Positions 6,430 to 33,690 of a stretch of 64,000 nucleotides of DNA are shown piece by piece; the stretch's first letter is position 1; each line of letters starts with the position of its first letter. The stretch spans positions 38,750,001 through 38,814,000 of the forward strand of contig CM114271.1 in assembly GCA_050084515.1 (NCBI GenBank), in the 5' to 3' direction. The stretch is from Blasia pusilla. Taxonomy: Eukaryota. Under the pieces are notes generated by a model. It was not told where the DNA came from. It saw only the letters and a program-made list of their open reading frames with translations, and ran no database searches. The position numbers and the translations under genes were made by a program.

Positions 6430-7348
<919 letters not shown>

Positions 7349-7664
7349 TGTCGTGCGCATACACATTGCTACACAACATACATCGTTGTCACCAAACACA
7401 CACACAAACACGCACAATCCCCTGCTAACTCATGGCATCCAAACAACGAGACAAGAAGTACCAAAATATCTTCAATCGCCCCTCTAGCTGGTGGTTAGGT
7501 CCCTCTAACTCCAGATAGCCATCTATCCCTACCTACCATCACATACATCTCTTGGACGCTAAGAGCAAGAAGGTCGGGTGCTCATGTGGCCCCATCCTTA
7601 GTCGCCTTCTTGTCATCCATATCACAGACACAAGTCGGAATGTATAACTACCTACTCTATGTAC

Positions 7665-9288: not shown

Positions 9289-9289
9289 G

Positions 9290-10565
9290 AAGTCATACTC
9301 CAGCAACAAAAGAGCCCACCTTGCAAGCTTCCATGTAAGCTTGTTGGACTCCATCAACCACTTAAGTGGTGTATGATCAATAATGATGGTAAAAGGATTG
9401 CCAAATAGATAACGTCTGAAACGTACGACAGCCCATACTATAGCCAAGCAGTCACCCTCATACGAGCTTTACTTCACCTCTACAGCGTTGTTCGAGCGAC
9501 CAGCATAAGGCACCATGAACTCTCTACCATCATTGTCATGCTGGGTGAGCATGGCTCCAAGCCCCAACATGGTCCAATCGGTATGCAATTGGAAAGGACG
9601 CCCCCTGATCGGTCTCCTCCATATGGTGCGGATGTCAATCTGTCCTTGAGCATCTGAAATGCTCTCTGTTGTTCATCCTCCCAATGCCACTCCTAATCCA
9701 CCTTGGTCATCAATTTTAGTGGATTCGCAATTGAACTGAAACCCTTGACGTACCGTCGATAGAAGTTCGCCAATCCCATGAATGCACGAACTCGACTCAC
9801 ATCTGTAGGGCGTGGAATGCGTGAAATAGCCTCTACCTTCGTCTATTGCACACTAAGGCCCCATAGATATATCATATAATCCAAGTACTCAATCTGGTCA
9901 TAGAAGAACTTGCACTTGCCTGGATGTAGCTTCAGCCTATGTACATGCAATCGTTGAAACACCTCCTCTAGATGTCACTCATGCTCCTCAACCGTGGCGT
10001 CAAAGACTACGATATCATCAATATAACATCTAGCAAAATCCACACCTACCAAGATCCTATCCATGACCCTCTGAAACTCAACCGAGGCGTTCTTTAACCC
10101 AAATGGTAAGAACCGCCACTGGTACAAACAATCCTTCCCGTGAGGATCGATGCCCCAAAATTCCGTCTTCTGCATGTCCTCCAATCTAATAGGCAACTGA
10201 TGGTATCTGGCTCGCAAATCCATTGAACTGAAGATCTTTGCATGCCCAATCGCATCAAAGATCTTCTCAGGGGTGGGCATAGCATACCTATCGGACTTTG
10301 TCTGCCGATTGATAGGTCGGTAATCTCCACACATCCTCCTATCCGTCTAGTTGCTATGCACATCCTTCTTGGCTGGCATGATAGTGGGACATGCATATTC
10401 TCCATGCAACATCTCCACTAGTCTTGCTCTAACCAAGTCCTGGCTCCTACTGTGAATCAAACCCCTCTCCATGTCACTATACCTGTAGGTTCGTCGGAAG
10501 ATTGACGTGTCACTCGAAAACTCAATGCGGATCCATGGACCATTTAGCGTACCCAAATTATACAT
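9290..10565 (-). pseudogene. Reverse transcriptase and RNase H of copy A
   Basis: RMCGDYRPIN, MDLRARYHQL, LPFGLKNA, YIDDIVVF; RNase H FQLHTDW..., LARWALLLLEYDF. Confidence 0.95.
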
Positions 10566-10989
10566 ACTAAATGCAAAATAACTCCTTTAACTCCTAAGGA
10601 ACTGGTGTATCCGACGCCGCTCTCCTGCTGTCAACTTATGCCCATATCTGGCTTCCAAGTCTCCATTGTGACTACGGTAGGACTCTCCGGCGTGGATGTT
10701 GGTGGTTGCTATGGTGCAACCCCGTTTCGCACAATAGAACTCTCATCTCCACGTGAAGTACCCGGAACCACGCTCCATGATGTGGCTATCATCTCCCGGC
10801 ATACCTGCAAAACATCCCAAGAAGTCCAAGGGTGTCCCTCCTGATCACCCCTGGTATGTCGATGTCCTCGGGTCTCGCCCCTAGCCACTGCCTCAACCGT
10901 CTCGGTAGGCATGGGGCTCACCAACGCAACTTTTTTGATCTATCACATCCTCAAACGACGTTGCTTACCTACTCCTAAGCTGAAAATCC

Positions 10990-11935
10990 ATGTCAAGCAA
11001 TTCAGGTCCATCGCTTGATCCAAGACATGACGTACTGATGCCTCCGTTAGTGATGGCACTGCCGTCACTCATGTGGGGAATCCCATCGCTCACTCTCACT
11101 CATCGGCGTTGGGCTCCACCAACCTCTATTCTTGGTACTCCCAAACCAAGTTAGGTCTGGCCTCCTTGAATGCATAAGAAGCGGGAAAACTCACCAATGT
11201 GGGAAAAGCTGCCCGTGGCCTGCCAACCTTGTTGACCACAGTCAACGGCGGTCGATCATCTAGCCTCATTGCCTGTGATTGACGGCCCAGATCCAATATA
11301 GAATCCACCAATAAATCGGAGGGACGCTCCACTCTCACATAAGCCCTCCGCAACACATCATGTGGCACCAAGTTGGTCCACATCTTTCTCCAACATACAC
11401 CCTCGAATCGCCCAAAGGTTCTAGAGCACATCGATGTGCACCAAGTTGGCGTGCATCTTTGGTAGACCAACTTGGTGCCTCATTCTCCAACATACACCCT
11501 CAAATCGCCCAAAATTGGCGATTCGAGGTGTATGTTGGAGAATGAGGCTGATGCTCTTGTAAATGTCGCAAGATCCGCATTATCTCCCAAAACAACCTGG
11601 ATCGAGTGTCAACTAATCCGCTACCTTGTCCAGCACTCGATTTTCCCTGACACGGCCAACCAGAAATGACCAAGTCTATGGTCCTTACCCGCTCCAAGTC
11701 ATGCGCCCCCAACAATAAAATGTCCCTCAGTAGGGAACTCTAGTAACCTTGAATGGCGGACGCAGACAACAAGTCGGGAAAACAGAGGCGTAACAATGCC
11801 ACATGGTGAAGTGAAGCGTGCCTTGCAACATCATCAATCTCTAGATATAGGTACTGTTGTACGCGCATTCCAGCATGCAAAACAGCAGCTAACCCAGTGC
11901 TCATCCCTCCAAAGAGATCCAACATCCGAATACCC
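10990..11935 (-). pseudogene. C5-cytosine DNA methyltransferase domain (DNMT3-like) in copy A pol
   Basis: Motif I MLDLFGGMSTG; motif II YLEID; motif IV DLVISGWPCQ; SRLFWEIMRIL; WTNL; motif IX ERAMGFP; motif X RHVLDQAMDLN. Motif VI is disrupted by a hairpin rearrangement. Confidence 0.9.
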
Positions 11936-12489
11936 TCCTTTGGGATGCACCACACAATCGGGGTGGTGTCCAAAGGGGTCATAGCATCACTCTTGCCTAC
12001 CTGGGGTTGCTCCAACCTGTCACATTCTAGTGCAAATGTCTTACTCCACACGGTCTTCATATGCTCAGTGGCTAAGCATCGAAGCTCCTTAGTCGAGCCC
12101 CAAAGCGGCACATGTCCTTCACGGACTGATGCGACTACCATGACATTCCTCTCCATAGAAATGTCAAGAACGGGAGTATCCTTTGCATGGAAATGTCCCT
12201 CTATCAAATCACTAGGCCAAGTGATGGCATTGCTCAATGCTGCTAAGATCACGATCTCTCCTGGCCGTTGCTCGATCACTGCACCTGTGAATCGAACGAG
12301 TAATGAGCTAAGGCGCCCATCACCTGACTGCCATCCTGGTCTGTAGGACGCTGACTCTTCCCAGTAATTCAGGGAAAACCCCATTCGCGTATGACATTGC
12401 TCCACCAACCAAGACATTATAGGACTCTGCATTAGTCACTATCGCCTTGGCTCACACCACGGACTCATCTGTAGGATGTCCGAGCGAAT

Positions 12490-12720
12490 CCTCACCACAA
12501 CCTCCTATCGGGTGATATACTGTGTGGTACTCGCTCTACCCAAGATGTTTGTATCTGGAATGGATAATGCTCGACATCAACTCTTGTCAAGCCTAATCCT
12601 TTGAATGACGCTTTCCCCAACATCAAGGGTTGCGCTCCTGAATCCAACAAGACGCAATGCGGACTAAAAGCTCTACCTCCAAGACTCACCAACTAGAAGA
12701 CCTCTCCTAAGTTATCCAGC
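12490..12720 (-). pseudogene. Retropepsin-type aspartic protease of copy A
   Basis: HCVLLDSGAQPLMLG active-site motif. Confidence 0.85.
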
Positions 12721-13262
12721 AACACAACACCAGGAGAAGCCATGGCACGCTCTATCGCAGGTCTAGTGGGCATCTCCGCCATCCTAGTAGTCGCAGCCTG
12801 CCATGAATCTGACGTGGACGGCCCGAGCATCCGCTCCAAGGGCAGGTCCATCACCTCCTCTACAATCACCTCTAAACGTGATGAAGGAACTCCAACTCCA
12901 CGCTCACATAATGTAGCTCAGCGGGCGTACCTCCCAACGTCATAACATCGGAAGTAGAGAATAAAGGAGCGTGGTAGAAAATGGTGGCCGCCCCCAAAAA
13001 CGTGCTCGACACATACCCCTCCTGAGCATCAGCAATAGGAGTCGTCGCACTCGCTTCTCCCATTACCCTCCGTGCCTACACACCAACAACATCACCAACC
13101 CTCCAGGAACTCTGATCAGAACCCATCGATGGGGTCCTCATCGCCTCGGAGAACGTGAAAGACTGAGGAAGCCTAGTCTGTTTCCTTGCTTCCCCTCGCT
13201 GTGGATCCAACTTTGCGGCTGCTCCATGTCGTACGCCTACTCTCCTTGAACATTAATCTTGT

Positions 13263-14269
13263 TGTTGCGGAAGGGTGCGTTCAGTAGGTCACGCTCTCAA
13301 CGCTGATCTACATCCAAACACACATTATGTTTAGTCGAATCTTGGATCAATCAGCGGGCTAACTTTCTGAGTTCTTGTCTCAGTCTCTCATCAAGCTCAA
13401 CCTCCCTTGTTTCTCGGTATACAACACGGGCAAGTCTCGAAAGACTCGGGACAGACTTTCTGGTCGGTTCAGGAACCTCAAACGGCATTTTGCACCTGGG
13501 GGTTCCAACTGTCCAATGGACATCCAATGAGTCTCTAACCGACACACGCACAAAGTGAATCTTGGGTCAGAATCCAAGCGTGGCGTACAAAGCCCACTCC
13601 CTTGGATCAGGTTTGGGTTTCGAGTTCCAACGCCAGACTCCCATTCCATCCCTAGCCTCTAAGACGCCGTTTGGTGCTCAAAGTGGGGATTTGTGTTCCA
13701 AGACATCTTGGAGAGACTCCTCCCTTACTTGTACTTCTAGGAATCTCCGCGGTTCCCTACATTTAGGGAAAGACACCCGGGCCTCTCCAATTGGCCCTCA
13801 ACCCGATTGCTCTCCCAATCCTTTTCGGCCAATATCTCCGTTTATACTTATGCGTTTTCTAAGATCTTTGGTGCGTTGGAAGCGTCTCAAGATAAGATTT
13901 CCAACACATCCTTATTTGTTGCAAATTCATCTTGGAGCTAAACCTTATGGTCCAAAACACAGTAAAATTCCCCAAGCGCTAGTAATGTTCCAAAACTGGT
14001 TCTCACCTCTTTGGCAACCAACCTTGCAATACTCGACTCATCTCAAGTCTTGGCTCGCATTTGGTCAAGGTTTCTTGGTTGCAACCACTAACGCATAAAA
14101 CCCACAACTCTATTCCGCCTTTTGTCTCTTGGACTTTTCCAAGAGACCTTTCCAAACGCCTCTCCAAAGCGCGAACATCGCAATGTGAGTCCACTTGAGT
14201 TCTGATGTTCCGCTTGGCACCTATTTGGTGTTGTTTGCTTATGAGGGTCACGATACTCCACCCGTCACA
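13263..14269 (-). repeat. LTR-like segment Y (~1 kb, TGTGAC...CAACA) inside copy A
   Basis: TG...CA ends; absent at this position in copy B; homologous to ~18800-19414. No TSD seen. Confidence 0.55.
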
Positions 14270-14639
14270 ACTGCAGTAGCCTCCATCTAGGCAACCACGC
14301 ATATCCAACCAGGATCCTCCATATCTCTGGCTGCTCCATATAATGTCGATGCCACGGATGCGGCATCGGGTAATCTCAATGCCATAGTGGCAATGTGCTC
14401 ATGTAGCTGATGTATCTGAGCAGCCATCCTAGCCTCACGCCTTGGCGTCTCCCTCGACGCGTCGATGTGGTGGGACTCTACCTCCTCCACATGCAGCTCC
14501 ACCACCATTTCGGGAAACTCTAGCTCCTCGTCCCCCAACGAGACCACTTGGTGCACGATCTCTAGGCCTACCCGGACCCGCTACTTGCTCTGGTGCCCTC
14601 TCTGGCCCTCGGTCCGAACATAACTTAGCATGTAAACTG

Positions 14640-15886
14640 AAACACCTGGCGCGTGTATGACCATAACTCTAACAAAAGTCACACTGATAACCTCTTGGTA
14701 CAGCACCATCTCCTCCTGCATGCTAAGGCACACGTCCATGATCCTGACGAGTGCAATCACACTGATGATGGGCTCCACCACATGACCAACAAGTAATTGT
14801 AGGCAGCTGCTACTGAGCGGTATATGAAGGCGCAGGTCTCTGTGGCACGGCCTCCCGATATCCTCCTTGAGCTCGTGGTGCCACAGTCGACCTATCTCAG
14901 AGTCCATGTTGCTGCACATGTGGTGTAGAAAATCGTGACTACTCTCGCCCAGAACCCATGGTGGCTACACTCTCCTCCGCCATGTTGCGCTCAATGTTCT
15001 TGACGTTCCTAAAAACATCTCTCAACGTAGGGAAGGTCTTCATAAGAAGCACCCCCTCCCGCACACATGTCCGTAGGGTCTGGTCGAGCATGGCGTACCA
15101 TGACTGGATAGCCTGAGCCTCTGTCACCCCCTGAGTGACGTTGATCAACCCGCGCAAGCGAGTGTAAGCCTCACGTAAACTCTTACCCGAGCGCCTGTGG
15201 AAGTCATGGATGCTCCGCAACTTCTCCGTCCGTACCTCCTGGTAGCTCACCCTCAACTCAACGTAGAACTCAACCACGGGATTGAACCTGGGATGAACCC
15301 GACTAGATGGTGCAATTGCTCCAGTGCGAGTGACCCCTCCTAAAACATCACTAGTGGAAGAGGAAGTAGCCTTTCTTGACTCCTCCTCCTCATCTGGGAA
15401 TGGCTCCGTCCATGACACATAGTGTGGTTCATAGTAGAGTCGCCATGCTTCAATCTCCTGGGCATATCTGTGGGAAAACTCATGGTAATTGTCCATGGGC
15501 GCCCCTTCTAAATGCTGGAAAATACCATTCCATGCTATGAACGGGTTGAACTCTCTAGAGTTCCTAGCTCGTTTTGAGTCACACCAACTCCTAAACTCCG
15601 CAATGAAGTCGTGTAGCTCTAAAGTGCCTACAGCACACGAAAACCTACGCGGTCCTCTACCCCGGTCGTCCATCTCGTACGCCCAACTAGTAGGACCACT
15701 CAATGTGTACGGTGGATCACTAACACACTCCTCTATACGCTCCTCCTTGTCTGAAAACGACAAAGAAGGAGATCGAGGTGGTCTTTCACGTGGAGACCCC
15801 CAAAACCTTGCACCACTCTGGCTAAACCCTCTAGAGCTACTCTCAGGTCCACTACCTTGCCTCTCAAAATCCTGAAAGGACGCCAT
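14640..15886 (-). pseudogene. Gag of copy A with two zinc knuckles
   Basis: 315-aa ORF 14939-15886 with a retrotransposon-gag-like core (RSGKSLREAYTRLRGL). Downstream CWSCGGAHHQCDC and CDFC*SYGHTRARC at ~14640-14795. Confidence 0.8.
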
Positions 15887-18799
15887 GATAGCCCTTGTGC
15901 CCCTCTCACATGATCACTCTCAATCTTGCAAGCAATCTCTCAATCACTCAAACTAAACATGCGACACTCAATCTACACTCTCTCAATGAGACGTGTGCTA
16001 TGTGGCAACAAGCAACGTGGTGCGGCAAATCAACTAATCTATCGTCTCATCGACAAACCATCCTCAGCTTTGGATATACCACATAGGTGTATGTCCCATA
16101 AACCCATACATCCTCGATGCTCCTAGCATCAGCACAAAACCCAATATCCCAAATAACTTCCCAATACCCGAAAATCCCTCACACGTGCAGGGTAAGAGAC
16201 CAGAATGGGTAACCTGACAATAATGTCGATGTTGCTCCTCGGCAACTACAAATCTGGACCCCAACTTGGTCGTGGAGACAACTCCTCCAATCAGCAAGTC
16301 GTACTCGTCTTGTATTGACGCTGCTCAAACCTCCTCGATGTGCGGTACATGTCCAACGGTACGGTACGATACCGGCGGCACGGAATGGCTACCAACGGCA
16401 CGACACTCAAGAATGAGGTGCAGCATTCGGCGGCATACCCTCCTCAATCAGCACTCGGCGGCATACCCTCCTCACACGCTCTGCTCCTAAGTGAAGGAGC
16501 GGCTCCGCGATCGAGACGGTGCGGTGCGGCCACGAGCGGCATGGCGTGACAATCGCCGGCGCCTTACGGCTACGGGCGTCACGGCACAGTACTCAATCGT
16601 CATCGAGCGGCTACCAATCACAACATAGAAACATGAAATAAAAACTCAAACACCATAACCCGAGGTCACCTACCATTACTGGTTGATGACGAAATTGCGA
16701 TCACAGTGGCGGCCAAACCAAGGTACATGATGGCGGCGCAAATCAGACAATCAACTTTGGTTGTGGAAGACCCTCCACTCCATAATGGCGGCAATGGCAA
16801 CCAAAGGGTGGACAACGGTCGAATGCGGCTCTAAGAAACGCTAGGCGGCAGCGGCGGTCGACGGTGGACGGTGGACCGCTGATGGTGACGGCCGACCATT
16901 GATGGTGATGGTTGACCGTCAATGGCAGACTATTGATGGTAACTATGACGGCGACAGCCGCCAATGGCATGGCAACTGGTTTAGGGTTTGAACAATTTAA
17001 CTCTAAAAATTGCCTAGCAATGGCAATTTTGCAAGATTGACCATAACATTTTGCTCACAACTCCAAATTTAGCACCATTTGTTGCCCAACATGCATATCT
17101 TCATGATCTACGACGGCAGAAAAAAATATTTTGAATAAAACATTTGAGTAAAAACTAACAGGGAGTTTTGTTAAGCCCAATGTCTCTTTCTCTTATACAA
17201 AATTTGGCAGCGCTTTCGCGCTGATTTCTCCCAACAAAAATGTAAAACCTGTGAAAATACAAATCAGAAAGCTACATGGTGATCCCAAGAGCACCGGCAT
17301 GGGGCAACTTGCCCCCATACTCAATCCCTATAAAAAATTGGGCAGCGCTTTTGCGCGCCACTCTTCCACACAAAAAATCGGCAAAGGAAACATCACAAGT
17401 AAGCAGCTCTTGCTCCGGTGAGCACTTCCATGAACCGCTGAATGGGGAATAGGATCCCCAACGTGCAAAACCAAGGAGTGACCAGCAAGCTCCCCCATGA
17501 AGCTCTGTCACTCACTCATTCTCTCTTTGTAAAATAAGATCCAATCTCTCTCAAAACACCATAGTTCTCACCTGTGTGCACTCTCACATATCTCTCTCAA
17601 TGTCAAACCAAATCCACTCTCCTAATAAGAGGCTTGGGTTACACACACAAAGCAAGCAAGACCATAGCTTCGCCGTCTCATGCCAAGAGGTTCAACAAAA
17701 AGAGAATGAGCTCTCAAGCTCTCTCTCCTTGAGGTATATCTGTCCCCTCTCCCAAGCTCTCTCCATGATAACCTATGCTCCCAAGTCACCTCCTTGGCTC
17801 TTGACCTCATGTAGGAAGTTAAGAGCCACTTACCAAAAATATAAATTCGATTATGTACTCAAAATGGTACTTATCTAAAATAGTAAGTTCCTCAATATGG
17901 CTCCAAATGAGCCGAAACGAAGGGAAAACCTGCTCTCTCAGGTTTCTCAAGGCCTCAGCAGGTCATCCTCGACCTATTGAGCATGTCCTCCACTCCTCAC
18001 AAAGGCGCTCTACTAGATCTTACCAATCTATCCTAAAAGATATGACACACTTGATGACGATCGAGTATCGTGTAGTGACGCTCGTATCCACAATGCGTCG
18101 TGCCTGCTCATGGCCGCACCGCACCGTCTCAATCACGAGCCGCATCCTCACTTTGGAGCATGGCATATGTTTCTGATTGCGGAGGATATGCCACTAAGTG
18201 CTTCATCCCACCATCGAGTGTTGTGTCGCTTGTAGCCATTCCGTGCTCCGAGTGTCGTACCGTACTGCTGGACTCGCTCCGCACATCGAGGAGATTTGAG
18301 CATCGTCAATACGAGAGGAGTATGACTTACAGATTTGAGGAGTTTGTCTTCACAATCGAGTTGGGGTTGAGCTTTATAGTTGGTGAGGAGTGACATTGAC
18401 ATTATTAAGGTTACCCATTCTGATCTTTTGCCCTACAGTGTGATGGAATTCCGAGTATTTTGCAGTTATTTGGGATATTGGGTTTGGTGTGGATGTAGAG
18501 CGCATCATGGATGTATGGGTTTAGGGGACATAGACCTGTATGGGATATTCACACTTGAGGGTATGTTCTATTGATGAGACAATAGATCTGTCAATTTTCC
18601 ACAGCACGCCGCTTGTTGCTGCACAGTACACGTCTCAGTGAAAGGGAGTGTAGGCTGAATGCCGCATGTTTGGTTCGGTGATTGAGGGATTATTCATGAG
18701 ATTGAGACTGATCGCATGGGAGGGGCACGAGGATCATCATGGCATCCTTTTGGTACTTTGAGAGGCAAGGTGGTGGACGTGAAAGTAGCTTTAGAGGTT

Positions 18800-19445
18800 T
18801 AGGCTCCAACGCATGAGAGATCTTAGAAAATGCACAAGGATCAGTTGAGATATTGGCCAAAAATTACTATGAGAGCAGTTGGATTGAGGGCCAATTTCAG
18901 GGGCCCGATTGTCTTTCCCTAAAGTAAGGGTGAAGACATGGATCCCCAAAAGAACTAGTAAGGGGGAGTGTCTCCAACGATTCTTGGAACACGAACCTCA
19001 CTTTGAGTGCCAAACAACATCTTAAGGGCACGGGATGGAACAAGACTTTGGCGTTGGAACTCGAAACCCAAACCTGATCCAAGGGAATGGATTTCGGAAG
19101 CCACACTCCAACCAGAGATTCATTTTCGTGACTCACAGCTAGATACTCATTGGATATCTATTGGACAGTTTGAACCACGAGGCATGCAAGCCCCATTTGA
19201 GGTTCCTCAACCGACTTGAAATTTTGTCCCAAGTCTTCAAAGACTTGGCTATGTTGTAAATTGTGAAACTAGGAAGATTGAGCTTGATGAGAGGCCGAAT
19301 CGAGAACTCGGATAGTTTGAATGATGATAGACCTAGATCCGAATAATGTGAGTGCATGTTTGGGTGCAGATCAAGATTGAGAGTGTGTCCTACTGGACGT
19401 ACGCTTCCGCAACATTAATGATTTACGTTCAAGGAGAGTAGGCAC
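18800..19445 (+). repeat. Partial segment Y replacing part of gag in copy B
   Basis: Reverse-complement match to ~13235-13885; ends acgcttccgcaaca...gttcaaggagagtaggc. Confidence 0.75.
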
Positions 19446-22094
19446 ATGACAATCGGGGTAGAGGACCGCGTAGGTTTCTAGGTGCTTTAGGTACCATAGA
19501 GTTACAAGACTTCATCGCAGAGTTTAGAAGTTGGTGTGATTCACAATGGGCTAGGAACTCAAGATAGTTCAACCCGTTTATAGCATGGACCAGCATTTTG
19601 ACAAGGCACCCATGGACGAATACCATGAGTTTTCTCAGAGATATGCCCATGAGATTGAGGCATGGAGACTCTACTATGACCCACACTATGTGTCCATGAC
19701 TAAGCCATTTCCACACGAGGAGGCGGAGTTAGGAGAGGCTACTTCCTCTTCCATCATTGATGAGTTAGGAGGGGTGAGTCCGACTAGGGCAGTTGCATCG
19801 TCCAGTCGGGTTCGTCATAGGTTCAACCTCGTAGTTGAGTTCTTTGGGGAGTTGCGGATGAGCTATTGGGGGTATGGACCGAGAATTTATAGAGCATCCA
19901 CGACTTCCATAGGCTCTTGGGTGAGAGTTTGCTTGAGGCCTGCACTTGCTTGCGTCATTTGATTAGTGTCACTTAAGGGGTGACAAAGTCCCAAGCTATC
20001 CAAGCATAGTACGCGATGCTCGACCGAGACATGCGAAAACTGGTGAGGGATGGGGTACTTCTAATGCGCACCTCACCTACGTTGAAAGATATTTTTGAGA
20101 CTGCGGAGAATATTGAGCGCAATATGGCTAAGGAGAGCGTAGTAGCCATGGGTTCTGTGCGAGGGCAGTCACAATTCGCTCCATCGTTAGTGGAGAAATG
20201 TGGATTTTGGGAGAGGATTGTGGCACCACGAGCTCAAAGAGGATATCGAGAGCCCGTGGCATAGCGACTTGCACCATCATATGCGGCTTAGCAGCAATCG
20301 CCAAGGATTATTTATTGGGCATGTAGTGGAGCCCATGACCAACGCGATTGCACCCGTTACGATAGTGGAGGCGTGCCTCAGCATGGAGGAGATGGGTTTG
20401 CACCAGAAGTTTATGAGTGTTACCATCATCAAAGGTACGGTCATATACGAGCCAGGTGTTTCAGTCTACTCCTGAGTTACGCCCGCAGCGAGGGCGAGAG
20501 AGGGCATCAAAGAAAGTTTTTGGTCTGGGTGGACCTAGAGGTCGTGTACTAGGTGGTCATGTTGGGGGATGAGGAGTTGGTTTTGCCTGAGTGGAGTTTC
20601 CCGTAGAGGAGGTTGAAGTCCACCACGTAGACACTTTGAGGGAGACGTCGGACGTGAGGCTGGGATATCTCCTCACATACATCAATTACAACTGCAAATT
20701 GTTGCTATGGCATTGAGGTTATCCAATGTCAGATCAGTGGCGTCGACGTCTTATAGGGAAGCTAGGGACATGAAGGATCTTGGTTGGATGTGCGCGGTTG
20801 CACAAACGGAGACAGACGCTAGAGTTACTTGTGGAGCAACTGCAGATCTAGAGTTGGATACGTAGAGAGGGGAGTCCAGGAAACAGAATGACTTCTTCAG
20901 TCTTTTAGATTCTCCGAGGCGATGAGGACCCCATCGATCGGTCTTGATCAGATTTCATGGAGGATTGATGTTGTGGGTGTACAGGCACGGAGGGTGCGAT
21001 GGAAGAAGTGAGTGCGACGACTCCTATTGCAGGTGCTCAAGTGGAGCTTGTGTCAAGCACGTTGTTGGGGGCGGCCACTACGATATACTGCGCACCATTG
21101 TTTTCTACTTTCAATGTTACGACGTTGGGAGGTATACTGATCGAGGTTTCAGGCTGGCCGCTACGCTATGTGAACATGGAGTTGGTGTTCCTCCGTCACG
21201 ATCAGAGGTGATTGGAGAGGAGGTGGTGGACCTGGCCTTGGAGCCTATGCTCGGGCCGTCCAAATTATATTCATGGCAAGCTACGGTTGCTAGGATGGCA
21301 GAGATGCACGCTAGACCCGCGATCGAGCATGCCATGGTATCGCGAGATGTTGTGTTGTTGGATAACTAGGGAGAGGTCTTCCAGTTGGTGAGTCCATGAG
21401 GCACATTGTTTTTTCCGATGCACGTCTTGTTGGATTTAGGAGGGCAATCCTTGATGTTGGGGAAGGGGGCATTTACAAGATTGGGCCTGACGAGGGCTGA
21501 CATGGAGTATTGCCCATTCATAATACATATATCCTTGGGTTGAGCGAGTATGATGCAATTTATCACCCGACATGAGGTTGTGGTGAGGATTAGCCCGGGA
21601 CATACATCAGATGAGTCCATGGTGCGATCCAAGTCGATAGTGACCAATGCTGAGTCCTATGACGTCGTGGTTGGAGGAGTATGCATCCTACAGACCAAGA
21701 TGGTAGTCTGGTCATGGTCGACTTAGCTCATTACCCGTTCGATTCACGAGTGGAGTGATCGAGAGATGGCCAATAGAGATGGCAATATTAATTGTATTCA
21801 GCAGTGCCATCACGTGGCCTACTGATGTGATTAAGGGGCATGACCATGCAAAGGACACACCCGCACCTAACACTTCTAGGGAGAGGAGTGTTATGCTAGT
21901 CGCATCATTCCATGGAGGAGAGGTGCCGTTGTGGGGCTCGATTAAGGAGCTTCCACGCTTGCCCAATAAGCACGTGCAGACGGCGTGGAGTGAGACGTTT
22001 GCACCAGAGAGCGATGGGTCAGAGGAACCCAAGGTAGCCGAGAGTGCTACGATGACATCCTTGGATACCACACCGATTGTGTGGCACATTCCAG

Positions 22095-23055
22095 AGGAGG
22101 ATATTCGGGTGTCGGATCTCTTTGGAGGGATCGGCACTACGTTAGCTGCTATTTTGGAGGCACGAGTATGTGCGCAAAAATATTTGTATATTGAGCTTGA
22201 TGAGGTTGCAAGGCACGTTTCACTACAACATGTGGCATAGTTACGCCTCCATTTCCCGACTTGTTGTGTGCGTCCGCCGTATAGGGATACCATAGTTCCC
22301 TAACGAGGGATATTTCATTACTGGGAGCGCAAGACTTGGAGCGGGTAGGGACCATTGATTTGGTTATTGTTGGTTGGCGATGTCAGGACCAATCGAGTCC
22401 TGGATGAGATAGTGGATTAGTTGACACTTGCTCCATGTTATTTTGGGAGATGATGAGGATCTTGCAACACTTGTAGGAGCATCAAATCAATCTTGTTCTA
22501 TTGCTTACATCTTGAAGAATGTAACAATTTTGGGCGATTCGACGTCACGGCTGGTGACGAGTGCACATCTAATGCCCACATGGATCAGCCCAGAAGTGTT
22601 GTTGGATGCGGTGATTGTATGTTCACAAGCTCATCGTCCACGTCTTTGGTGAACCAACTTGGTGCCCCATGAGGTCTTGCATATGCCCTATGCAAGACCT
22701 CATGGGAGCGCCCCTCCCATTTTTGGGTGGATTCTATTCTCAACCCAAGTCATCGATCAGAGGTAGTGAGGCACAATGATCAAACGTCATTCTCTATGGT
22801 CAACAAAATTTGCATGCCACGGGCAGCCTTTCCCACATTTGTGTGTTTTTCCGCTTCATGTGCATATAAGGAAGATGAACTTGGCTTGGTTTGGGATGAC
22901 TAGGTATAGCGGTTGGTGGAGCCCCACGTCATTGAGCGAGAGTGAATGATGGGATTTCCCACAAGAGTGACAGGATTACCCTCACTATTAGAGGCATGAT
23001 AATAACATGTCTTGGGTTAAGCGATAGACTTGAACTGATTGACATGGATGGTCAT
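22095..23055 (+). pseudogene. C5-cytosine DNA methyltransferase domain (DNMT3-like) in copy B pol
   Basis: VSDLFGGIGT (I), YIELD (II), DLVIVGWRCQ (IV), LFWEMMRIL, YILKNV (VI), LLDA..SQAHRPRLW*TNL (VIII), MGFP (IX), HVLG*AIDLN (X). Confidence 0.9.
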
Positions 23056-24485
23056 CTTAGGAGTAGTTGAGCAACAGGTCATAACAGTTGCGTTGGTGAG
23101 CCCCACGCCTACCAAAATGGTTGAGGTAGTGGTTGGGGGCTAGATCTGAGGAGATCGACACTCCAGGGGTGATCGGGAGAGATACCCTTGGACTTCCTGG
23201 GATATTTTGCAAGTACGTCAAGAGATGGTAGCCACAACATCGAGCGTGGTTTCGGATATTGCACATGGAGAAGATGAGATTTTGCAATTGGTTGCACGTT
23301 AGCAATCAAGCTATGTTATTCACAATGGGATTGTACCATAATAACTATCGATACCAGCCTTGGAGAGTCCTACCCTAGTCACAATGAAGACGTGGGAGTC
23401 AGATATGGGCCCTTAGTTGACAGGAGGAGAGCGGCGCCAGATAGATTAGTTCTTTTTGGAGTTATAGGAGTTATTTTGCATTTAGCATACATGATTTGGG
23501 TACGTTGAAGGGTCCAAGGATCCGCATTGGGTTGTCTAGCGACACACCAATCTTTGGACAACCTTACAAGTACAATGATATGAAGAGGGCTCTAATTCAA
23601 TGTAGGAGCCAAGACTTGGTTGGAGTAGGACGAGTGCAGATGTCGTATGGAGAGTATGCATCTGCCACTGTAATGCCCGCCAAGAAGGATGTGCATGGCA
23701 ACTGGAGGGATAGGCGGATGTGTGGAGATTACCAACCTATCAATCGGTGGACGAAGTCCAATAGGTATGCCATGCCCATTCCTAAGGAGACCTTTGATGT
23801 TATTGGGCATGCAAAGGTCTTCTATTTGTTGGATCTTCAAGCCAGATACCATAAGTTGCCTATCCTCTAATCTGATAGGCAGCTGATGGTATCCGACTTT
23901 CAGATTGGAGGATAGGCAAAAGATTACATTTTGGGGCATCAATCCTCACGGGAAGGATGGCTTGTACGAGTGGCGTTTCTTACCATTTGGGTTAAAGAAC
24001 GCTCCGGCTGAGTTTTGAGAGAGTCATAGATAAGATCTTGGCAGGTCTTGATTTTGCTAGGTGTCATATTGATGACATCGTAGCCTTTAGCGCCATGGTT
24101 GACGAGCATGAGCGACATTTGGAGGAGGTGTTTCAACGATTGCAATTACATGGGCTAACCCTACATCCAAGCAAGTGCAAGTTCTTCTATAACCAGATTA
24201 AGTACTTGGGTCATAGAATATACCTAGGTAGCCTTGGTGTGTAGCAGACGAAGGTAGAGGCTATTTCACGCATTACATACCCAAAAAATATGAGTTGAGT
24301 ACTTGCATTCATGGGATTGGCAAAATTTGATCGACGGTACATCAAGGATATCAATTTGATTGCAAAGTCGTTAACCTCGCTCATCAAGGTGGATCAAGAG
24401 TGGCACTTGGGGATGAATGGGAGAGAGCATTTCAACTGCTCAAGGTCAGGTTGATGTCTGCGCCCATATTGAGGAGACCAATCAG

Positions 24486-24726
24486 CAAGGTTGCATGTGG
24501 ACAAAGTCCATGTCCGTGGACTTATGTCTGTTCCATACTCCCCCATTTCTTCCTCCCTCCACCTCCACTCCCTCCTTCCTCATTGCTCTTATCATCCTTG
24601 CCTTGCCTTCCATCATGGACTAAAAGTGTGGGTCCTACCTCTTGGAACTCATGTCCGTGTACATGTCCAGACTTGTCCGTCCATGTCTATCCTAAGGAAG
24701 GACTTGTCCGTTTTTGTGCAACCATG
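24486..24726. mobile_element. hAT-type MITE (241 bp) inserted in copy B
   Basis: TIRs CAAGGTTGCA / TGCAACCATG; 8-bp TSD CCAATCAG (24478-24485) / CCAATGAG (24727-24734). It interrupts the RRPI|RGRPF frame. Confidence 0.85.
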
Positions 24727-24977
24727 CCAATGAGGGGGCGTCCTTTCCAATTGCATACAGATTGGAGCATGTTGGCGCTTGGAGTGGTGCTCATCCAACA
24801 TGACGATGAGGGTAGAGAGTTTGTGGTGGCTTACGCTAGCAGCTTGAACAATGTTGTAGAGACAAATTATAGCTCGTATGAGGAGGAGTGTTTGGTTGCA
24901 GTGTGGGCTATCATGCATTTCAGGTGTTACTTATTTGGCAACCCCTTTACCATCATTACTGTTCATTAGCCACTTAA

Positions 24978-25318
24978 TGTAACTCTCCAACTCCCGAAAC
25001 CACTCTAGAGTTGGTCAAAGCAAGAATAGCCTTCAAGGCCTCTCCTCTTCCTTTATATACTCAGAGATAGGTACAATGAAGACAAAGTAGCTCTTCCTAT
25101 CCTTATGCCACGTGTCTTAATCTCATAGCATGAGAGGATCTCTTTTCCCCTCTAATATTCCGACCTCATCCTTATCTTCCTTTTCACCAACTTTTGGCCC
25201 CACTCTCATCTTTATCTCATGTATCTTGCCTTTTTTCTCTTTTTGGTTGATTTTTTCCCACGTATGCGTCGCATGTCATAGATTATAACTTAACTATTAC
25301 TAACAAAGGATGGTTACA
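24978..25318. mobile_element. Solo LTR (341 bp) inserted in RNase H of copy B
   Basis: TGTAAC...GTTACA ends, perfect 5-bp TSD CTTAA, internal TATA-like tttatata. Confidence 0.9.
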
Positions 25319-27392
25319 CTTAAGTGGTTGATGGAGTCCCGAAAACTTATAGGGAAGCTTGCGAGGTGGGTTCTATTGTTGGAGGAGTATGATTTCCAAG
25401 TGGTGCATAGACCTAGGAGGCTCAACCAAGATGTAGATGGTTTGAGTTGTAACCCATGCCTGAGTGAGCAAGATGCAATTGGAGCTCAGTGGTATGGAGA
25501 GAGTGATGAGAAGTTGGTGCCAAGATGGCACGCGTCAGCCTATTTGGGCTTGTTGGCTATGGATAGCCATAGTGTTGAGACTTCGATGGCGAGGTGTGTG
25601 GGAGAGTCCTTAGATCCAGAGGTCGGTGAGGAGGCAACAGGTGGCTGAGATATTCATGAGAATATAGCAGTCTTTGTGTACCTATGTATTGGAAATATCG
25701 TGAGCACATTAATTGCTAGCTAGAGAGCGAGATTGGATCCTATAGCAAGCCAAACGATTCCGATGGGAGGAGACACATATATTGCAAGTTTGGGAGGATG
25801 GTAGAGTATGTGTAATGCCTTATCTTTCACATAGAGCATGTTTGGTGAAGCATGCTTACAAGGAGTTGGGTCATTTTGGAGTGGAGTGGATGTACAACTT
25901 GCTCTAGATACAATATTGGTGGCGAGGCATGCAGATTGACGTTTAGGAATTTGTTGCTATGTGCATGATGTGTGATCGGGTCCAAGCATCCTTCAATGCT
26001 CTTACTCTACAACTGCATCCATTTCTGATCATGGATTTAGGTTCTAGATGGATTTTGGACTTTTCAAGACGTTTACCTTTGACGGAGCGCCATAGTCGTT
26101 ATGTGTTGGTGATGGTCGAACACTTCTCGAAGTGGATAGAGTTGGTTATATTTCTTGAAAAAGTGAGTGAGGGAGTAGCATATGCCTTTCTAGAGCAAAT
26201 GTTGAGTCATTACGGTGCAACAGCTGAGGTGTTGATAGACCAGGGTATGGAGTTTTACGTGGAGTTTCAGTCCTTGAATGATCATACACTTATCAACCAC
26301 TACACCACTTCGCGGGATCATCCTAAGACGGATGGATTAGTGGAGAGGATTGTGCCAACAATGAAGAGAGGTTTGCGCAAGTATGGTTTCCTAGGAGAAT
26401 GGGACCTCCAATTTTTGTGGTTCGCGATGGGATACAAATTCGGCAGGCAAGCCTCCTTAACGTCTTTCTCACCATCCTTGTTGCTTTATGGCCAAGAGCC
26501 AGACTTACTTGCGGCCATTTGTCAAGATGTTATGAGATGTTGAATCTTGATGACCCTGATGTATGGATGGGAGTATGTTCTTAGAGGGCTGGGTTATTTC
26601 GGAAAGTAATGTCCATGACGTTTGAGAACCTGGCGATTGCGGAACATCGAGATACTTTGAGGTATGCGACTATTCGGGGAGGTGATTATCGACCTACTAT
26701 CCGGAGGTTTCATCAAGGAGGCTATGTCTACTCGCAACAGACGGCACCCACAATTTTGGATGTGAGTGCAAGGCACACCATCTGGAGAGTGCGTAAGATT
26801 TTACCATATGGTGTTCTTTTATTGGAGGGACGTGATGGTATGGTTTGGAAGGACCATTTGCATAATTTTGCGTCATGTCATCTTCTCAACATTGACAGTA
26901 CATTTGATCCGAGCTAAGCAGTAGTTCTTGCATGCTTACAATGTATGTTGTGTGGTTCCGCCCGTGGTGCAGCCACTACGTTAGTCTATGATGGATGTTT
27001 GAGAGGATGGCATATGGCATGCTTGACGCCATCTCTCACTAGGGTTTCTCAGGAACAATATATGTGCCCTAGATGTACATAGAGTAGATAGGCATATATT
27101 CCGACTTGTGTCTGTGATATGGATGACAAGAAGGCGACTACAAATGGGACCACATGAGCACCCAACCTTTTTGCTCTTAGTGTCCTAGAGATGTATATCA
27201 TGGTAGGTAGGGATAGATGGCTATCTAGCGTTAGAGGGATCCAACCACCAACTAGGTGGGCGATTGGAGATATCTTGGCACTTCTCGTCTTGTTGTGTGG
27301 ATTCCATGAGTTGAAATGGGATCGTGTTTGTTTGTATGTGCATTTGGTGATAACGATGTACGTTGTGTAGCGATGTGTATGTGCATGACAAC

Positions 27393-28017
27393 TATCACGT
27401 CTGTTAGGATAGATCAACAAGATCTAGTAGAGATCCTTCAAAGATAGTAGAGGACAATCCCTAAAGGTCAAGCATGACTTGTTGAGGCCATGGGAAACCT
27501 GAGAGAGCAAGTTTCTCCTTCATTTCGGCTCATTTGGAGCTATATTGAGAAACTTATTATTTCGGGCAAGTTACGATTTTGTATGGTTGACTTTCCACTT
27601 TGGGAAGTGGCCCTTGACCTGGTATAGTAGGTCAAGAGCCAAGGAGTTGATCTGGGAGCATAGGTTATCGTGGAGAGAGGTTGGGAGAGAAAAGGGGGTA
27701 TACCTCTAAGAGAGAGAAAGCATGAGCTCTCTTTGTTGAACCTTTTAGCATGAGGCGGCGGAACTATGGTCATCCTTGCCTTGTATGTGTAATCCAAGCC
27801 TCTCATTAAGAGAATGGGTTTGGTTTTACATATGAGAGAGAGAGTGCACACATTGTGAGACCTTGTTGTGAGTGAATTCCACTTGATCTAATTGAAGATA
27901 TTTTGGTATTTCTCATCTCGTTGTGTGGATTTCATGAATTAACATGGGATCCTGTGTGTTTGTATCCGCATTCGATGACAACGATGTATGTTATGAAATG
28001 ATATATATGCGTACAAA
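27393..28017 (+). mobile_element. Short derivative of the same family: 5' terminal ~480 bp joined to 3' terminal ~125 bp
   Basis: 27393-27865 matches the 5' end of A (18047 to 17570); 27890-28017 repeats 27262-27390. Starts 2 bp after the 3' end of B. Confidence 0.75.
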
Positions 28018-28479
28018 TTTTTTTAATAAAAATGGTTTTAAAAATTATCTTACTTGCATGAATTAAAAGTCCGATGCTTTCTTCTCCGCATGAAAGACAA
28101 GTTGTCTTTTAACTAGTCCAATATTATATTGGAGTCAACTGTTCTCCAAACCAGGCAACATCCAAGCCCATGGGCCGATGATATAAAATACGCCATTCCT
28201 ACATGCAGTCTTGCTGAAAAACAACGTTTCTTTTAACTGTCCTTGAACTAATTCCTTATAATTTTTAGCCTAGATGAAAATAGAATAAAAAAATCTACTC
28301 CTATTTTGTTTGGCCTTGTACTAGAGGAAGTCGGCCATGATTCCCATTTCTCTCCCATACTGGCGGGGCCGTATGGGCTCATTAAAAGAACAGGCAGTGA
28401 GGCACGATGATCGACTACCGTTGACTGTGGTCAACATGGTAGGCAGGCCGCGGGCAGCCTTGCCCACGCTATGCATCAC

Positions 28480-29885: not shown

Positions 29886-32800
29886 TGTCGTGCGCATACA
29901 CATCGCTACACAACATACATCGTTATCACCGAACACACACACAAACACGCATGATCCCATGCTAACTCATGGCATCCAAACAACGAGACAAGAAGTACTA
30001 AAATATCTCCAATCGCCCCTCCTAGCTGGTGGTTAGGTCCCTCTAACTCCAGATAGCCCTCTATCCCTACCTACCACAGCATACATCTCTAGGACGCTAA
30101 GAGCAGAAAGGCCGGGCGCTCATGTGGCCCCATCGTTAGTCGCCTTCATGTCATCCATGTCAGTGAAAAAGTCGGAATCAAAACCTACCTAGTATCTCCT
30201 CTATGTACATCTGGGACACATCCATTGTCCCCGAGGAACCCTAGTGAGAGGTGGCGTCAAACATGCCATATGCCAACCTCTCGAACATCCATCACAGAAT
30301 AGCATCGTGGCCGCACCACGGGCAGAACCACACAACATACAACGCAAGCCTGAAGGAACTACTGCTAAGCTCGGATCTACTGTATCATCAATGTTAGGAA
30401 GGTGACATGGCGCACAATTACACACATGGTCCTTCCATACCATACCATCGCATCCCTCCAGCAAGAGAACACCGGATGGCAAAACGTCACGCACTCCCAA
30501 GATAGTGTGCCTGCAGTCACATCCAACGTCGTTGGTGCCGTCTGCTGCAAGTAGACATAATCTCCCTTATGAAACCTCCAGATAGTTGGTCGATAACCAC
30601 CATCCCGAATAGTCGCATACCTCAACGTATCACGATGCCGCGCAATCGCCAAGTTCTCGAACGCCATAGGCATCACTCTCCGAAACAACTCAGCCCTCTG
30701 AGAACATGGTCGTATCCACAAATCTGGGTCATCAAGGTCCAACACCTCACCAGCATCTCGACGAATGGCCACAAGTAAATTTGGCTCTCGGCCATAAAGT
30801 AGCAAGTACGGTGAAAAAGACGCTACAGATGCCTACCTGCTAAATCTGTATCCCATCGCCAACCAGGGAAACTGGAGGTTCCAATCTCCTAGCTAACCTC
30901 TCTGCAAGCCATACTTGTGTAAACCCCTCTTCACCGTCTTCACAACTCTCTCCGCTAATCCATCCGCCTCAAGATGATCTCGCGAAGTCGTGCGGTGGTC
31001 GATTTGGGCCTGATCACACTAGGCTTGAAACTCACCGTGAAACTTGGTACCCTGGTCTGACAACACCTCAGCCGGTGCGCCATAATGACTCAAGACTTTG
31101 TCAAGGAAGGCATAGGCTACTCACTCACTCACTTTGTCAGGCAATGCAACCAACTCGATCCACTTCGAGAAGTGCTCGACCATCACCAACACATAACGAC
31201 TGTGACGCTCCGTCAAAGGCAAAGGTCTTGCAAAATCCAAAATCCATCTATACCCTAAGCCCATGATCGGTAATGGATGCAACTGTGGAGTTGAAACATT
31301 GAACGATGGTTGAACCCGATCATACACCATGCACCTGGCAACAAACTATTGAACGTCAATCTGCATGCCTCGCCACCAATACTGAATTTGGAGCAAGCTG
31401 TACGTCCGCTTCATCCCAAAGTGACCCAACTCCTCGTGGGCATGCTACACTAGTCGTGCTCTCTGCGAAGGATGCGGCACTACGCGTACTCTTCCATCCT
31501 CTAAAATCCTCAAAACATGTGTCCCCTCCCAACGGAACCGTCTGGCCCGCTATAGGATCCGATCCCGCTCTCTAGCATCCACGGTGCTCAAAACGCTGCC
31601 AGTACAAAGATACTCCAAGACTACTCCATCATCATGAATATCTCGGCCACTTGTCGTCTCCTCAATGGCCTCGGGGTCCAAGGACTCTCCAGTAGACCTC
31701 ACTATCAAAGTCTCCACATTCTGGCTCTCCATAGCCAACATGCCTAAATAGGTTGACGCGTGCCATCTTGGCACTGACTCCTCATCACTCTCTCCATGCC
31801 ATCGAGCTCAAGTCGCATCTCGCTGACTCGGGCATGGGTTACGACTCAACCCATATGCATCCTCGTTGAGCGTCCCAGGTTTATGTACCACCTGAAAATC
31901 ATACTCTTGCAACAACATAGCCCATCTCGCAAGCTTCCTTGTAAGCTTGTCGGATGATCAGCGATGATGGTAAAGGGGTTGCCAAATAAGTAACACGTGA
32001 AATGCGCGACAGCCCACACCGCAGCCAAGCACTCACCCTCATACGAGTTGTACTTTGCCTCTGCAACGTTGTTCGAGCGGCTAGCGTAAGCCACCACGAA
32101 CTCTCTACCCTCATCATCATGTTGGGTGTGCACCGCTCCAAGCCCTAACATGCTCCAATCTGTGTGCAACTGGAAAGGATGCCCCCTGATCGGTCTCCTC
32201 AAGACGGGCGCGGACGTCAACCTCTCCTTGAGCAACTGAAATGCTTGCTCTTGCTTATCCCCCTAGTGCCACTCGTGATCCACCTTGGTCAGCAAGGTCA
32301 GCGGCTTCGCAATCGAACTGAATCCCTTGACGTACCGCCGATAGAAGTTTGCCAATCCCATGAATGCGCAAACACGGCTCACATCTGTAGGGCGTGGAAT
32401 GCGTGAGATAGCCTCTACCTTTGTCTTCTGAACACCAAGGCCCCCTGGATATATCATATGACCCAAGTACCCAAGTACTCAATCTGGTTGTAGAAGAACT
32501 TGCACTTGGCAAGTTCAGCCCATGTAATTGCAATCGTCAAAACACCTCCTCTAGATGTCGGTCATGCTTCTCAACTGTGGCGCTAAAGACTACGATGCCA
32601 TCAATATAACACCTAGCAAAATCCAGACCAGCCAAGATCCTATCCATGACCCTCTAAAACTCAGCCGGGGCGTTCTTTAACCCAAATGGTAAGAACCGCC
32701 ACTGGTACAAACAATCCTTCCCGTGAGGATCGATGCCCCAAAATGCCGTCTTCTGCCTGTCCTCCAATCTGATAGGCAGTTGATGGTATCCGGCTCGCAA

Positions 32801-33690
32801 ATCCAATGAACTGAAGACCTTTGCGTGACCAATCGCATCAAAGATCTCCTCACGGGTGGGCATGGCATACCTATCGGACTTCGTCTGCCGATTGATAGGT
32901 CTGCAATCCCCACACATCCGCCTATCCGTCCAGTTGCCATGCACATCCTTCTTGGCGGGCATGACAGTGGCACATGCATACTCCCCATGCGACATCTCCA
33001 CTAGTCCTGCTCCGACCAAGTCCTGGCTCCTATTGTGAATCAGAGCCCTCTCCATATCACTGATCCTGTAGGGTCGTCGAAAGATCGGCATATCACTCGA
33101 CAACTCAATGCGTATCCCCGGTCCCTTCAGCGTACCCAAATCCTCCATGCTAAACGCAAAGCAGCTCCTATAACTCCTGAGGAACTTATGTATCCGGCGC
33201 CGCTCTCATCGTGTCAACTTAAGTCCCATATCTGGCTCCCAAGTCTCCATCGTGACTACGATAGGACTCTCCGGCTCCAGTAACGGTGGTTGCTATGGTG
33301 CAACCCGGTCTCGAATAACAACACTCGTCCGCTCTCTTGCAACCAACTGCAAACTCTGATCTCCTCTATATGCGGTGCCCTGAACCACGCTCGATGTTGT
33401 GGCTATCACCTCCTAGCCTACGTGCAAAACATCCCAAGAAGTCCAAGGGCGTCTCTCCCGATCTCCCCTGGTGTGTAGATCTCCTCGGGTCTCGTCCCTA
33501 GCCACTGCCTCCGCCGTCTCGGTAGGCATGGGGCTCACCAATGCAACCGCTGTGATGTGTCGCGATCTCATACGACGCTACTCAGCCACTCCCAAGCTGA
33601 GGATCCATGTCAAGAAGTTCATGTCCATCGCCTGACCTAAGACATGGCGTCGTGATGCCTCGACACTCTTGTGGGAAATCCCATCGCTGC
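29886..33690 (-). mobile_element. Retroelement copy C, 5'-truncated (DNMT tail-RT-RH-IN-PHD)
   Basis: Same 3' terminus GCACGACA at 29886; RT 32654-33148, RNase H 31846-32235, integrase ~30500-31450; DNMT motif IX/X remnant (MGFP..VLGQAMDMNFL) ~33600-33690. Confidence 0.92.
30201..30340 (-). pseudogene. Intact C4HC3 PHD finger at the integrase C-terminus of copy C
   Basis: CMLCGSARGAATMLFCDGCSRGWHMACLTPPLTRVPRGQWMCPRC followed by stop. Confidence 0.92.

Follow-up and report, generated by a model that had tools for sequence, protein, structure and literature searches.

The question raised by this locus is whether a retrotransposon can choose its insertion site by chromatin state and then mark that site. 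The window, which is the whole stretch of 64,000 nucleotides analysed here (Blasia pusilla, GCA_050084515.1, contig CM114271.1, positions 38,750,001 to 38,814,000), contains three copies of an element, A, B and C, in which the initial annotation saw a PHD finger fused to the integrase and a DNMT3-like methyltransferase, that is, a reader plus a writer in one polyprotein. A C4HC3 PHD finger with all eight ligands kept was confirmed on the minus strand of copy C, at 30341-30207, and a stop codon at 30203-30201 (-) terminates the frame directly after it, at the end of pol as annotated. Profile search with PF00628, the check proposed in the annotation, gave E 1.9e-13 and 50.6 bits, above the curated cut-off of 24. 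The further PHD copies noted near 7665-7800 and 26940-27078 were located at 7803-7660 (-) and 26936-27079 (+). Copy C had been called intact, which is right for the PHD itself, in a stop-free frame of 121 aa, but not for the integrase, which has six stops and lies in a frame different from that of the PHD, nor for the 5' end, which is lost at 33661, leaving no more of the DNMT than its last 22 aa. The three copies are decayed members of one family, and their features are as follows.

29886..33661, minus strand: copy C, 5'-truncated, with DNMT tail, stop, RT, RH, INT, PHD, PPT and a single repeat B; pol broken (about 90% identical to full copies)
29886..30013, minus strand: repeat B of copy C, GACA at its end (window copy comparison)
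30014..30023, minus strand: polypurine tract adjoining repeat B, copy C (junction comparison)
30204..30347, minus strand: C4HC3 PHD finger, C-terminal end of pol, copy C (ligand pattern and PF00628 match)
30566..31480, minus strand: integrase of copy C, six stops, frame other than that of the PHD (window copy comparison)
33293..33295, minus strand: in-frame TAG, then CAA CCA, between DNMT and RT, copy C (copy and genome-wide stop comparison)
7349..18047, minus strand: copy A, A-body-B form, all domains, decayed, antisense within the 5' UTR of copy B (window copy comparison)
18048..18051, minus strand: target-site duplication AGTG, 4 bp, 5' side of copy A (end pairing)
17530..18047, minus strand: repeat A1 of copy A, TGTC at its start (window copy comparison)
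17515..17529, minus strand: PBS-like 15-mer of copy A, self-priming type, complementary to a stretch within repeat A (PBS comparison)
10979..11931, minus strand: DNMT3-like methyltransferase domain of copy A, broken (domain match)
10709..10711, minus strand: TAG CAA CCA stop of copy A (stop comparison)
7660..7803, minus strand: PHD of copy A, two stops (window copy comparison)
7349..7476, minus strand: repeat B of copy A (window copy comparison)
7345..7348, minus strand: target-site duplication AGTG, 4 bp, 3' side of copy A (end pairing)
6559..7136, plus strand: 5' UTR piece of copy B, separated from its body by copy A (window copy comparison)
18095..28014, plus strand: body of copy B, with gag, PR, DNMT, RT, RH, INT, PHD and B1-A2-B2; the most decayed (window copy comparison)
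22103..23053, plus strand: DNMT3-like domain of copy B, broken (window copy comparison)
26936..27079, plus strand: PHD of copy B, no stop, Cys3 changed to Tyr and core Trp to Tyr (window copy comparison)
27263..28014, plus strand: split repeats of copy B, B1 27263-27390, A2 27393-27872, B2 27891-28014 (self-comparison)
27387-27396, plus strand: decayed internal end-to-end junction, copy B (self-comparison)

Inverted matches in the window were rejected as terminal inverted repeats, their source being copy A nested antisense in copy B. Inserts at 13226-14256 (copy A) and 18800-19457 (copy B) lie in different places and are absent from full-length copies; they are about 75% alike over 650 bp and probably represent a small mobile element in its own right. 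The RH-INT region of copy A has a 513-bp inversion (8778-9289), and isolated fragments of the family's DNMT and repeat A occur at 28390-28468 and 45762-45878. A further reverse transcriptase ORF at 37391-38497 (+) (RVT_1, E 8e-14), with no family match in self-comparison, is probably LINE-type, and a Helitron helicase-like fragment at 2292-2777 (-) reached E 3.9e-06, under the cut-off.

The PHD terminates the integrase frame across the whole family. Integrase_H2C2, rve and PHD follow one another with no stop in four of four long frames scanned from other natural copies, as expected from the annotated fusion to the integrase C-terminus, and these four INT-PHD frames gave no chromodomain match. 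Among copies fetched by their 5' end, the PHD is present after 8 of 9 full integrases and the DNMT in 17 of 20, the latter being 20 of 30 loci chosen for an intact start. The domain order is gag (zinc knuckle)-PR-DNMT3-like, stop, RT-RH-INT-PHD. Of the solved structures, that of Ty3 comes nearest to the RT (E 1.5e-40), which together with the order PR-RT-RH-INT identifies the element as Ty3/Gypsy. Within Ty3/Gypsy, this high-copy family is best placed with the streptophyte Gypsy-DNMT3 elements, a kind already described. The 390-Mb genome yielded 8,966 PHD and 7,545 DNMT first-look candidates, which are not copy numbers; in 40 sampled 3.5-kb stretches the family makes up about 16% of the DNA overall, with 25.5% in the 20 stretches on early C1 and 7.6% in the 20 elsewhere.

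Named INT-PHD homologs were found in Klebsormidium, Calypogeia, Marchantia and Sphagnum, together with a Riccia integrase with no listed PHD, and DNMT homologs in Marchantia, Calypogeia, Sphagnum and Closterium; Closterium P0153 gave no PHD match. In the integrase tree the family falls in the starred clade with Marchantia and Calypogeia proteins, and Klebsormidium proteins fall in the wider clade; the placement points to a liverwort-like bryophyte as the probable host. Three Marchantia genes annotated as hypothetical proteins, Mp4g09160, Mp8g17980 and Mp7g09570 (P0124, P0125, P0028), are pieces of this retrotransposon clade, with 59-67% identity over the matched DNMT part. The DNMT lies between RH and INT in P0154 and P0156 (RT-RH-DNMT-INT-PHD in a single ORF) and before RT in P0161 and P0162 (DNMT-RT-RH-INT-PHD in a single ORF), so it has moved or been captured more than once.

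What the PHD binds bears directly on the proposal that it reads the H3K4 state. Its nearest solved structures are KDM5A/B PHD1, KAT6A, DPF3, BHC80, ATXR5, CHD4, AIRE and UHRF1. These are readers of unmodified H3. Several of them are named as such in the accessible text of a published study (PMC4225485). Residues were counted in the 59 homologs with the full pattern, out of 120 collected: 55 of 59 retain an Asp behind Cys3, 26 of 59 have Asp ahead of Cys1 (at Cys1-3), and the cage-Trp position holds Gly in 55 of 59 and Trp in none. This position was assigned from the ING2/BPTF alignment. PHD fingers that read H3K4me3 have an aromatic cage with an invariant Trp (PMC3241642, accessible text), so H3K4me3 reading by a PHD lacking that residue in all 59 homologs is unlikely. 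In KDM5B, D328 binds H3R2 and D308 binds K4 (PMC4225485, accessible text). The Asp after Cys3 of the element corresponds to D328. Like the P-x-G-x-W pocket and the hydrophobic residue that precedes Cys3, it is retained both in the homologs and in the genome's own copies. Contact with the H3 N-terminus is plausible from these residues.

K4me0 readers are marked by acidic residues before Cys1 (PMC3241642, accessible text). The Blasia family PHD has no acidic cluster before Cys1 and no acid at the D308 position. Its net charge is +3 to +7 in 29 of 30 copies scored, which had been picked for likeness to copy C, against a median of -1 in 61 homologs; in the nearest clade, with Marchantia and Calypogeia, the charge is +1 to +4. 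With the D308 acid missing and so basic a domain, the PHD may bind histones weakly or have lost the ability, and it is doubtful that it reads K4 strictly. The annotated reading of the H3K4 state was thus not borne out, for want of the cage Trp and of the acidic K4 contact and because of the positive charge. Compared with PHD1 of KDM5B and KDM5A (PMC4225485, PMC3241642, accessible texts), the element PHD shares the fold, the Asp after Cys3, the hydrophobic residue before it, the C-terminal Trp and the lack of an aromatic cage; however, it has no equivalents of D308 or E321 and is basic, not acidic. A predicted complex with H3(1-30) scored 0.30 against a mark of 0.34 and was counted neither way.

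These features leave some room for the idea that in this sub-lineage the PHD no longer reads histones and is kept on the integrase as a basic module that binds DNA or the nucleosome surface, or that is structural. The charge, the missing acidic cluster and the equally basic Marchantia/Calypogeia clade speak for it, but retention of the R2-binding Asp, of the hydrophobic residue before Cys3 and of the P-x-G-x-W pocket makes it unlikely, though it stays a serious alternative. Tethering is most likely the job of the PHD.

The repeats of the element raise a second issue. The copy layout is A (about 514 bp)-body-B (about 126 bp)-A-B: among 30 PHD-anchored loci, 20 have the form A-body-B-A-B, seven a single B and three another form, and two complete direct LTRs flanking the element were not found at these loci. 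The element ends are TGTC...GACA. In 25 paired ends, tallied by eye, a 4-bp target-site duplication (TSD) is exact in 15, matches at three of four positions in six, which differ solely by C>T or G>A, matches at two of four in one, and is absent in three. None of the 15 exact TSDs fits NCGN, the target preference given for Phygy (Neumann 2019, PMC6317226, accessible text). Where B meets A inside the element, the junction reads GACA-NN-TGTC (palindromic when NN is GC) and has 666 exact matches. Repeat A ends at the PBS 15-mer, which is complementary to a site 162 nt upstream within A; the complement is at least 10 nt long in 33 of 41 cases, and the PBS conforms to the published definition of self-priming, namely at least 10 bp located 0-5 bp after the LTR (Neumann 2019, PMC6317226, accessible text). 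A purine tract directly precedes repeat B; the repeats have the PBS exactly at their end and the PPT exactly at their start.

Some loci depart from the common layout. At L075, L082 and L097, what follows the PBS is repeat A in reverse complement, and such a fold-back is consistent with self-priming pairing. L019, L081 and L113 are tandem body-B-A-body arrays, in which one complete B-A repeat is common to both bodies. Solo A-B units, the equivalents of solo LTRs, occur at L065 (its first A-B pair, with an exact 4-bp duplication) and L089.

The A/B join itself was compared among copies. In 46 joins, one or two A's alternate; a PBS remnant is present in L076 and L089, which were picked up by a PBS pattern, and a PPT remnant in L117. 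On a tree of 42 copies, with three insertion joins not counted, the one-A/two-A class requires 10 changes (shuffled mean 9.0), and an inherited control marker on the same tree requires 2 (shuffled mean 8.3; 0 of 1,000 shuffles as low). Since the join class does not track the tree and PBS and PPT remnants are found, the A/B join looks newly made in each cycle. This sequence pattern suggests an integrase that opens the cDNA within one of the LTRs. No copy of the mirror form A-B-A-body-B was found (0 against 726 A-B ends and 402 PPT-B-A junctions), and symmetric opening of a 2-LTR circle was rejected on these counts. The same strict asymmetry is the weak point of the internal-opening model; that the 5' LTR becomes double-stranded first, or that methylation shields the other junction, are guesses at its cause.

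The layout equals the split repeats of DIRS elements. The DIRS order is defined by a tyrosine recombinase and by the lack of TSDs; this element has a DDE integrase and 4-bp TSDs. A DIRS/Ngaro-like replication could nevertheless be imagined, in which the RNA extends as far as the end of B2, the parent passes on its A2/B2 join, the ends are restored by template jumps and the integrase inserts the product. It would account for A-body-B-A-B being the sole form seen, and RNA reads across the A/B join (12 and 8 in two RNA runs, whose organism is possibly a relative of the genome's source) speak for such a route. However, an inherited join is at odds with a join class that does not track the tree and with PBS and PPT remnants within the junction, and nothing in such replication requires repeat limits placed exactly at the PBS and the PPT; we regard it as improbable. 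Reads of the two runs cover 30 of 30 bins of the element and are strongly biased to one strand, which is the sense strand for a dUTP-type library; they are mostly 90-95% alike to the element and do not fix the start site. In a separate search of sequencing runs, none of those containing the element was recorded as RNA. At L199:548-9693, some RNA reads (4 and 6) pass from the region ahead of B straight to an internal site of A and leave out about 500 nt of the 3' end, which reflects either a splice or a deleted copy.

The third issue is the methyltransferase. The annotated DNMT3-like domain was found in copies A and B, and a genome copy used as query has DNMT3A/B as its nearest solved structures (E 2e-11). 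Stop-free frames contain motifs I, IV, VI, VIII and X, the domain is unrearranged, and separate open frames join the knuckle to PR and PR to the DNMT. Between DNMT and RT, an in-frame TAG is present in 27 of 29 copies and is followed by CAACCA in 26. The flanks of this boundary have 1,702 exact matches genome-wide; among the 100 listed, 91 have TAG, four TAA and five a sense codon. The phrase "one polyprotein" does not agree with a stop at this point in 27 of 29 copies and 95 of the 100 listed matches. UAG followed by CAR YYA (UAG-CARYYA) is the readthrough context of TMV (PMC2754532), and many Gag-PR-DNMT proteins of relatives, about 1,200-1,430 aa long, end shortly after the DNMT. Because the stop is conserved, the bulk of the DNMT is expected to be translated together with Gag, and the PHD through readthrough alone: the main product would be Gag-PR-DNMT, and RT-RH-INT-PHD would be a readthrough product. 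Our literature searches, which covered few subscription journals, found no account of a readthrough stop in the Gypsy-DNMT3 family. The split is not universal, since P0154, P0156, P0161 and P0162 have DNMT and PHD in a single stop-free ORF.

If Gag-PR-DNMT is the main product, methylation of cDNA in the particle is favoured over marking of the target. Methylation of cDNA inside the particle has been raised for DIRS elements (de Mendoza 2018, PMC5890265, accessible text), and in the same text the DNMT of KnitGypsy did not methylate yeast DNA, a result its authors call inconclusive. Insertion targeting was examined by a single test, the comparison of flanks, and this showed no bias: flanks lie within the own family in 7 of 30 cases (5') and 10 of 55 (3'), against 70 of 440 control windows, the sample being small and the control uneven (55 of 220 windows for early C1, 15 of 220 for the rest). 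Own-family nesting was rejected as a sign of heterochromatin targeting, the flanks not being enriched, and the annotated sequence of events, to target and then to mark the site, gains nothing from these counts. Of "reader plus writer", the INT-PHD fusion and the presence of a DNMT3-like domain in the element stand, whereas a stop parts the DNMT from the PHD. Separation of polyprotein domains by a protease is established for LTR elements. That the PHD reads the H3K4 state and steers integration while a fused DNMT3 marks the new site is therefore quite improbable, since the conserved stop places the DNMT with Gag, the K4-binding acids are missing, the flanks are not enriched and the element's own protease would probably cut PHD and DNMT apart, even though the PHD is closest to unmodified-H3 readers, both domains would be present in a readthrough product, a single ORF of P0154 and of P0156 contains the PHD and a DNMT flanked by RH and INT, and chromodomain and MBD targeting have precedents in print.

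The best explanation as a whole, to which we assign a probability of roughly 0.6, combines stop-split expression, a permuted-LTR cycle and a PHD tether. The RNA would start inside A and prime itself on the 15-nt PBS. Most ribosomes would stop at UAG-CAA-CCA to give Gag-PR-DNMT, and a minority would read through to give RT-RH-INT-PHD. The methylase would be packaged at capsid level, and its most likely substrate would be newly made cDNA inside the particle instead of the target site. The true LTR would be B+A, bounded by the PPT and the self-priming PBS, and reverse transcription would yield BA-body-BA. The integrase may then cut the palindromic GACA-NN-TGTC inside the 5' LTR and join those ends to the target, and joining of the blunt A and B ends of the cDNA would give A-body-B-A-B. 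The PHD would stay on the mature integrase as a nucleosome tether. It may descend from readers of unmodified H3 (A1/R2) and exclude H3K4me3; in the basic sub-lineage it is probably only weakly K4-selective and may also hold DNA. For the clade, we consider slightly better than even the chances of a wider proposal: that its LTRs carry head-to-head integrase sites, that the palindrome of the 5' LTR is opened and the cDNA ends are joined to give DIRS-like integrants, and that, beside the PHD tether, a DNMT3 made at Gag level ahead of a leaky UAG enters the particle in quantity, where it might shield the unused junction or silence the cDNA in advance.

The closest known system is KnitGypsy-Dnmt3 of Klebsormidium nitens (de Mendoza 2018, PMC5890265, accessible text), which shares the Gypsy domains, the DNMT3-like domain in the polyprotein and the DIRS-like split repeats noted in the 2018 legend. 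A PHD is not mentioned in that text, although a figure may show one, and the Klebsormidium proteins KFL_015960010 and KFL_005000010 are INT-PHD homologs of the Blasia element. The accessible description does not include a readthrough stop, a self-priming PBS, a TSD or an internal integrase junction such as are seen or proposed for the Blasia element, whose family also fills about 16% of the sampled DNA. Chromoviruses of the Tcn1/Tf1-Sushi group (Neumann 2019, PMC6317226, accessible text) likewise have a reader domain at the integrase C-terminus and a self-priming PBS; the Blasia element differs in its PHD in place of a chromodomain, its DNMT and its permuted repeats. EpiLTRs (bioRxiv 10.64898/2026.05.21.726589, accessible text) are LTR elements that combine DNA methyltransferases with a chromatin reader, but these are DAM, a DNMT4-related DNMT and a chromodomain, in the hosts Cymbomonas and Euglena. 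The initial annotation mentioned PHD-bearing Gypsy elements from lycophytes: retrotransposon PHDs and reader fusions are indeed in print (PMC6673714; bioRxiv 2021.11.30.470311), but, figures aside, "PHD" is absent from the accessible main text of Neumann 2019 and two Selaginella papers, as from that of de Mendoza 2018. Foamy virus integrase (PMC1180852, accessible text) likewise produces processed ends by cleaving a palindromic junction of two ends; there, however, the junction arises from circularised ends, whereas in the model for the Blasia element it is a heritable site inside each LTR, with only one of the two used. No account of an internal integrase junction in the Gypsy-DNMT3 family was found in our literature searches, with their coverage of few subscription journals, and no title among the 25 papers listed out of 505 on split repeats, integrase and circles points to this mechanism. 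The circle junctions of IS3/IS911 are a similar case.

In conclusion, the pairing of PHD and DNMT3 is a modest extension of a known family, and what is worth following is the proposed expression split together with the permuted-LTR anatomy, which would alter the understanding of these elements. If the DNMT precedes a leaky stop, the enzyme is expected in particles in amounts like those of Gag, with cDNA as its substrate, and the readthrough stop makes the role of retrotransposon DNMTs directly testable. Integrase ends located inside the LTR would explain the DIRS-like repeats noted in 2018 and, if true, represent a different route from cDNA to provirus. Tools that seek two direct LTRs should miss such elements, despite their making up about one sixth of the sampled genome.
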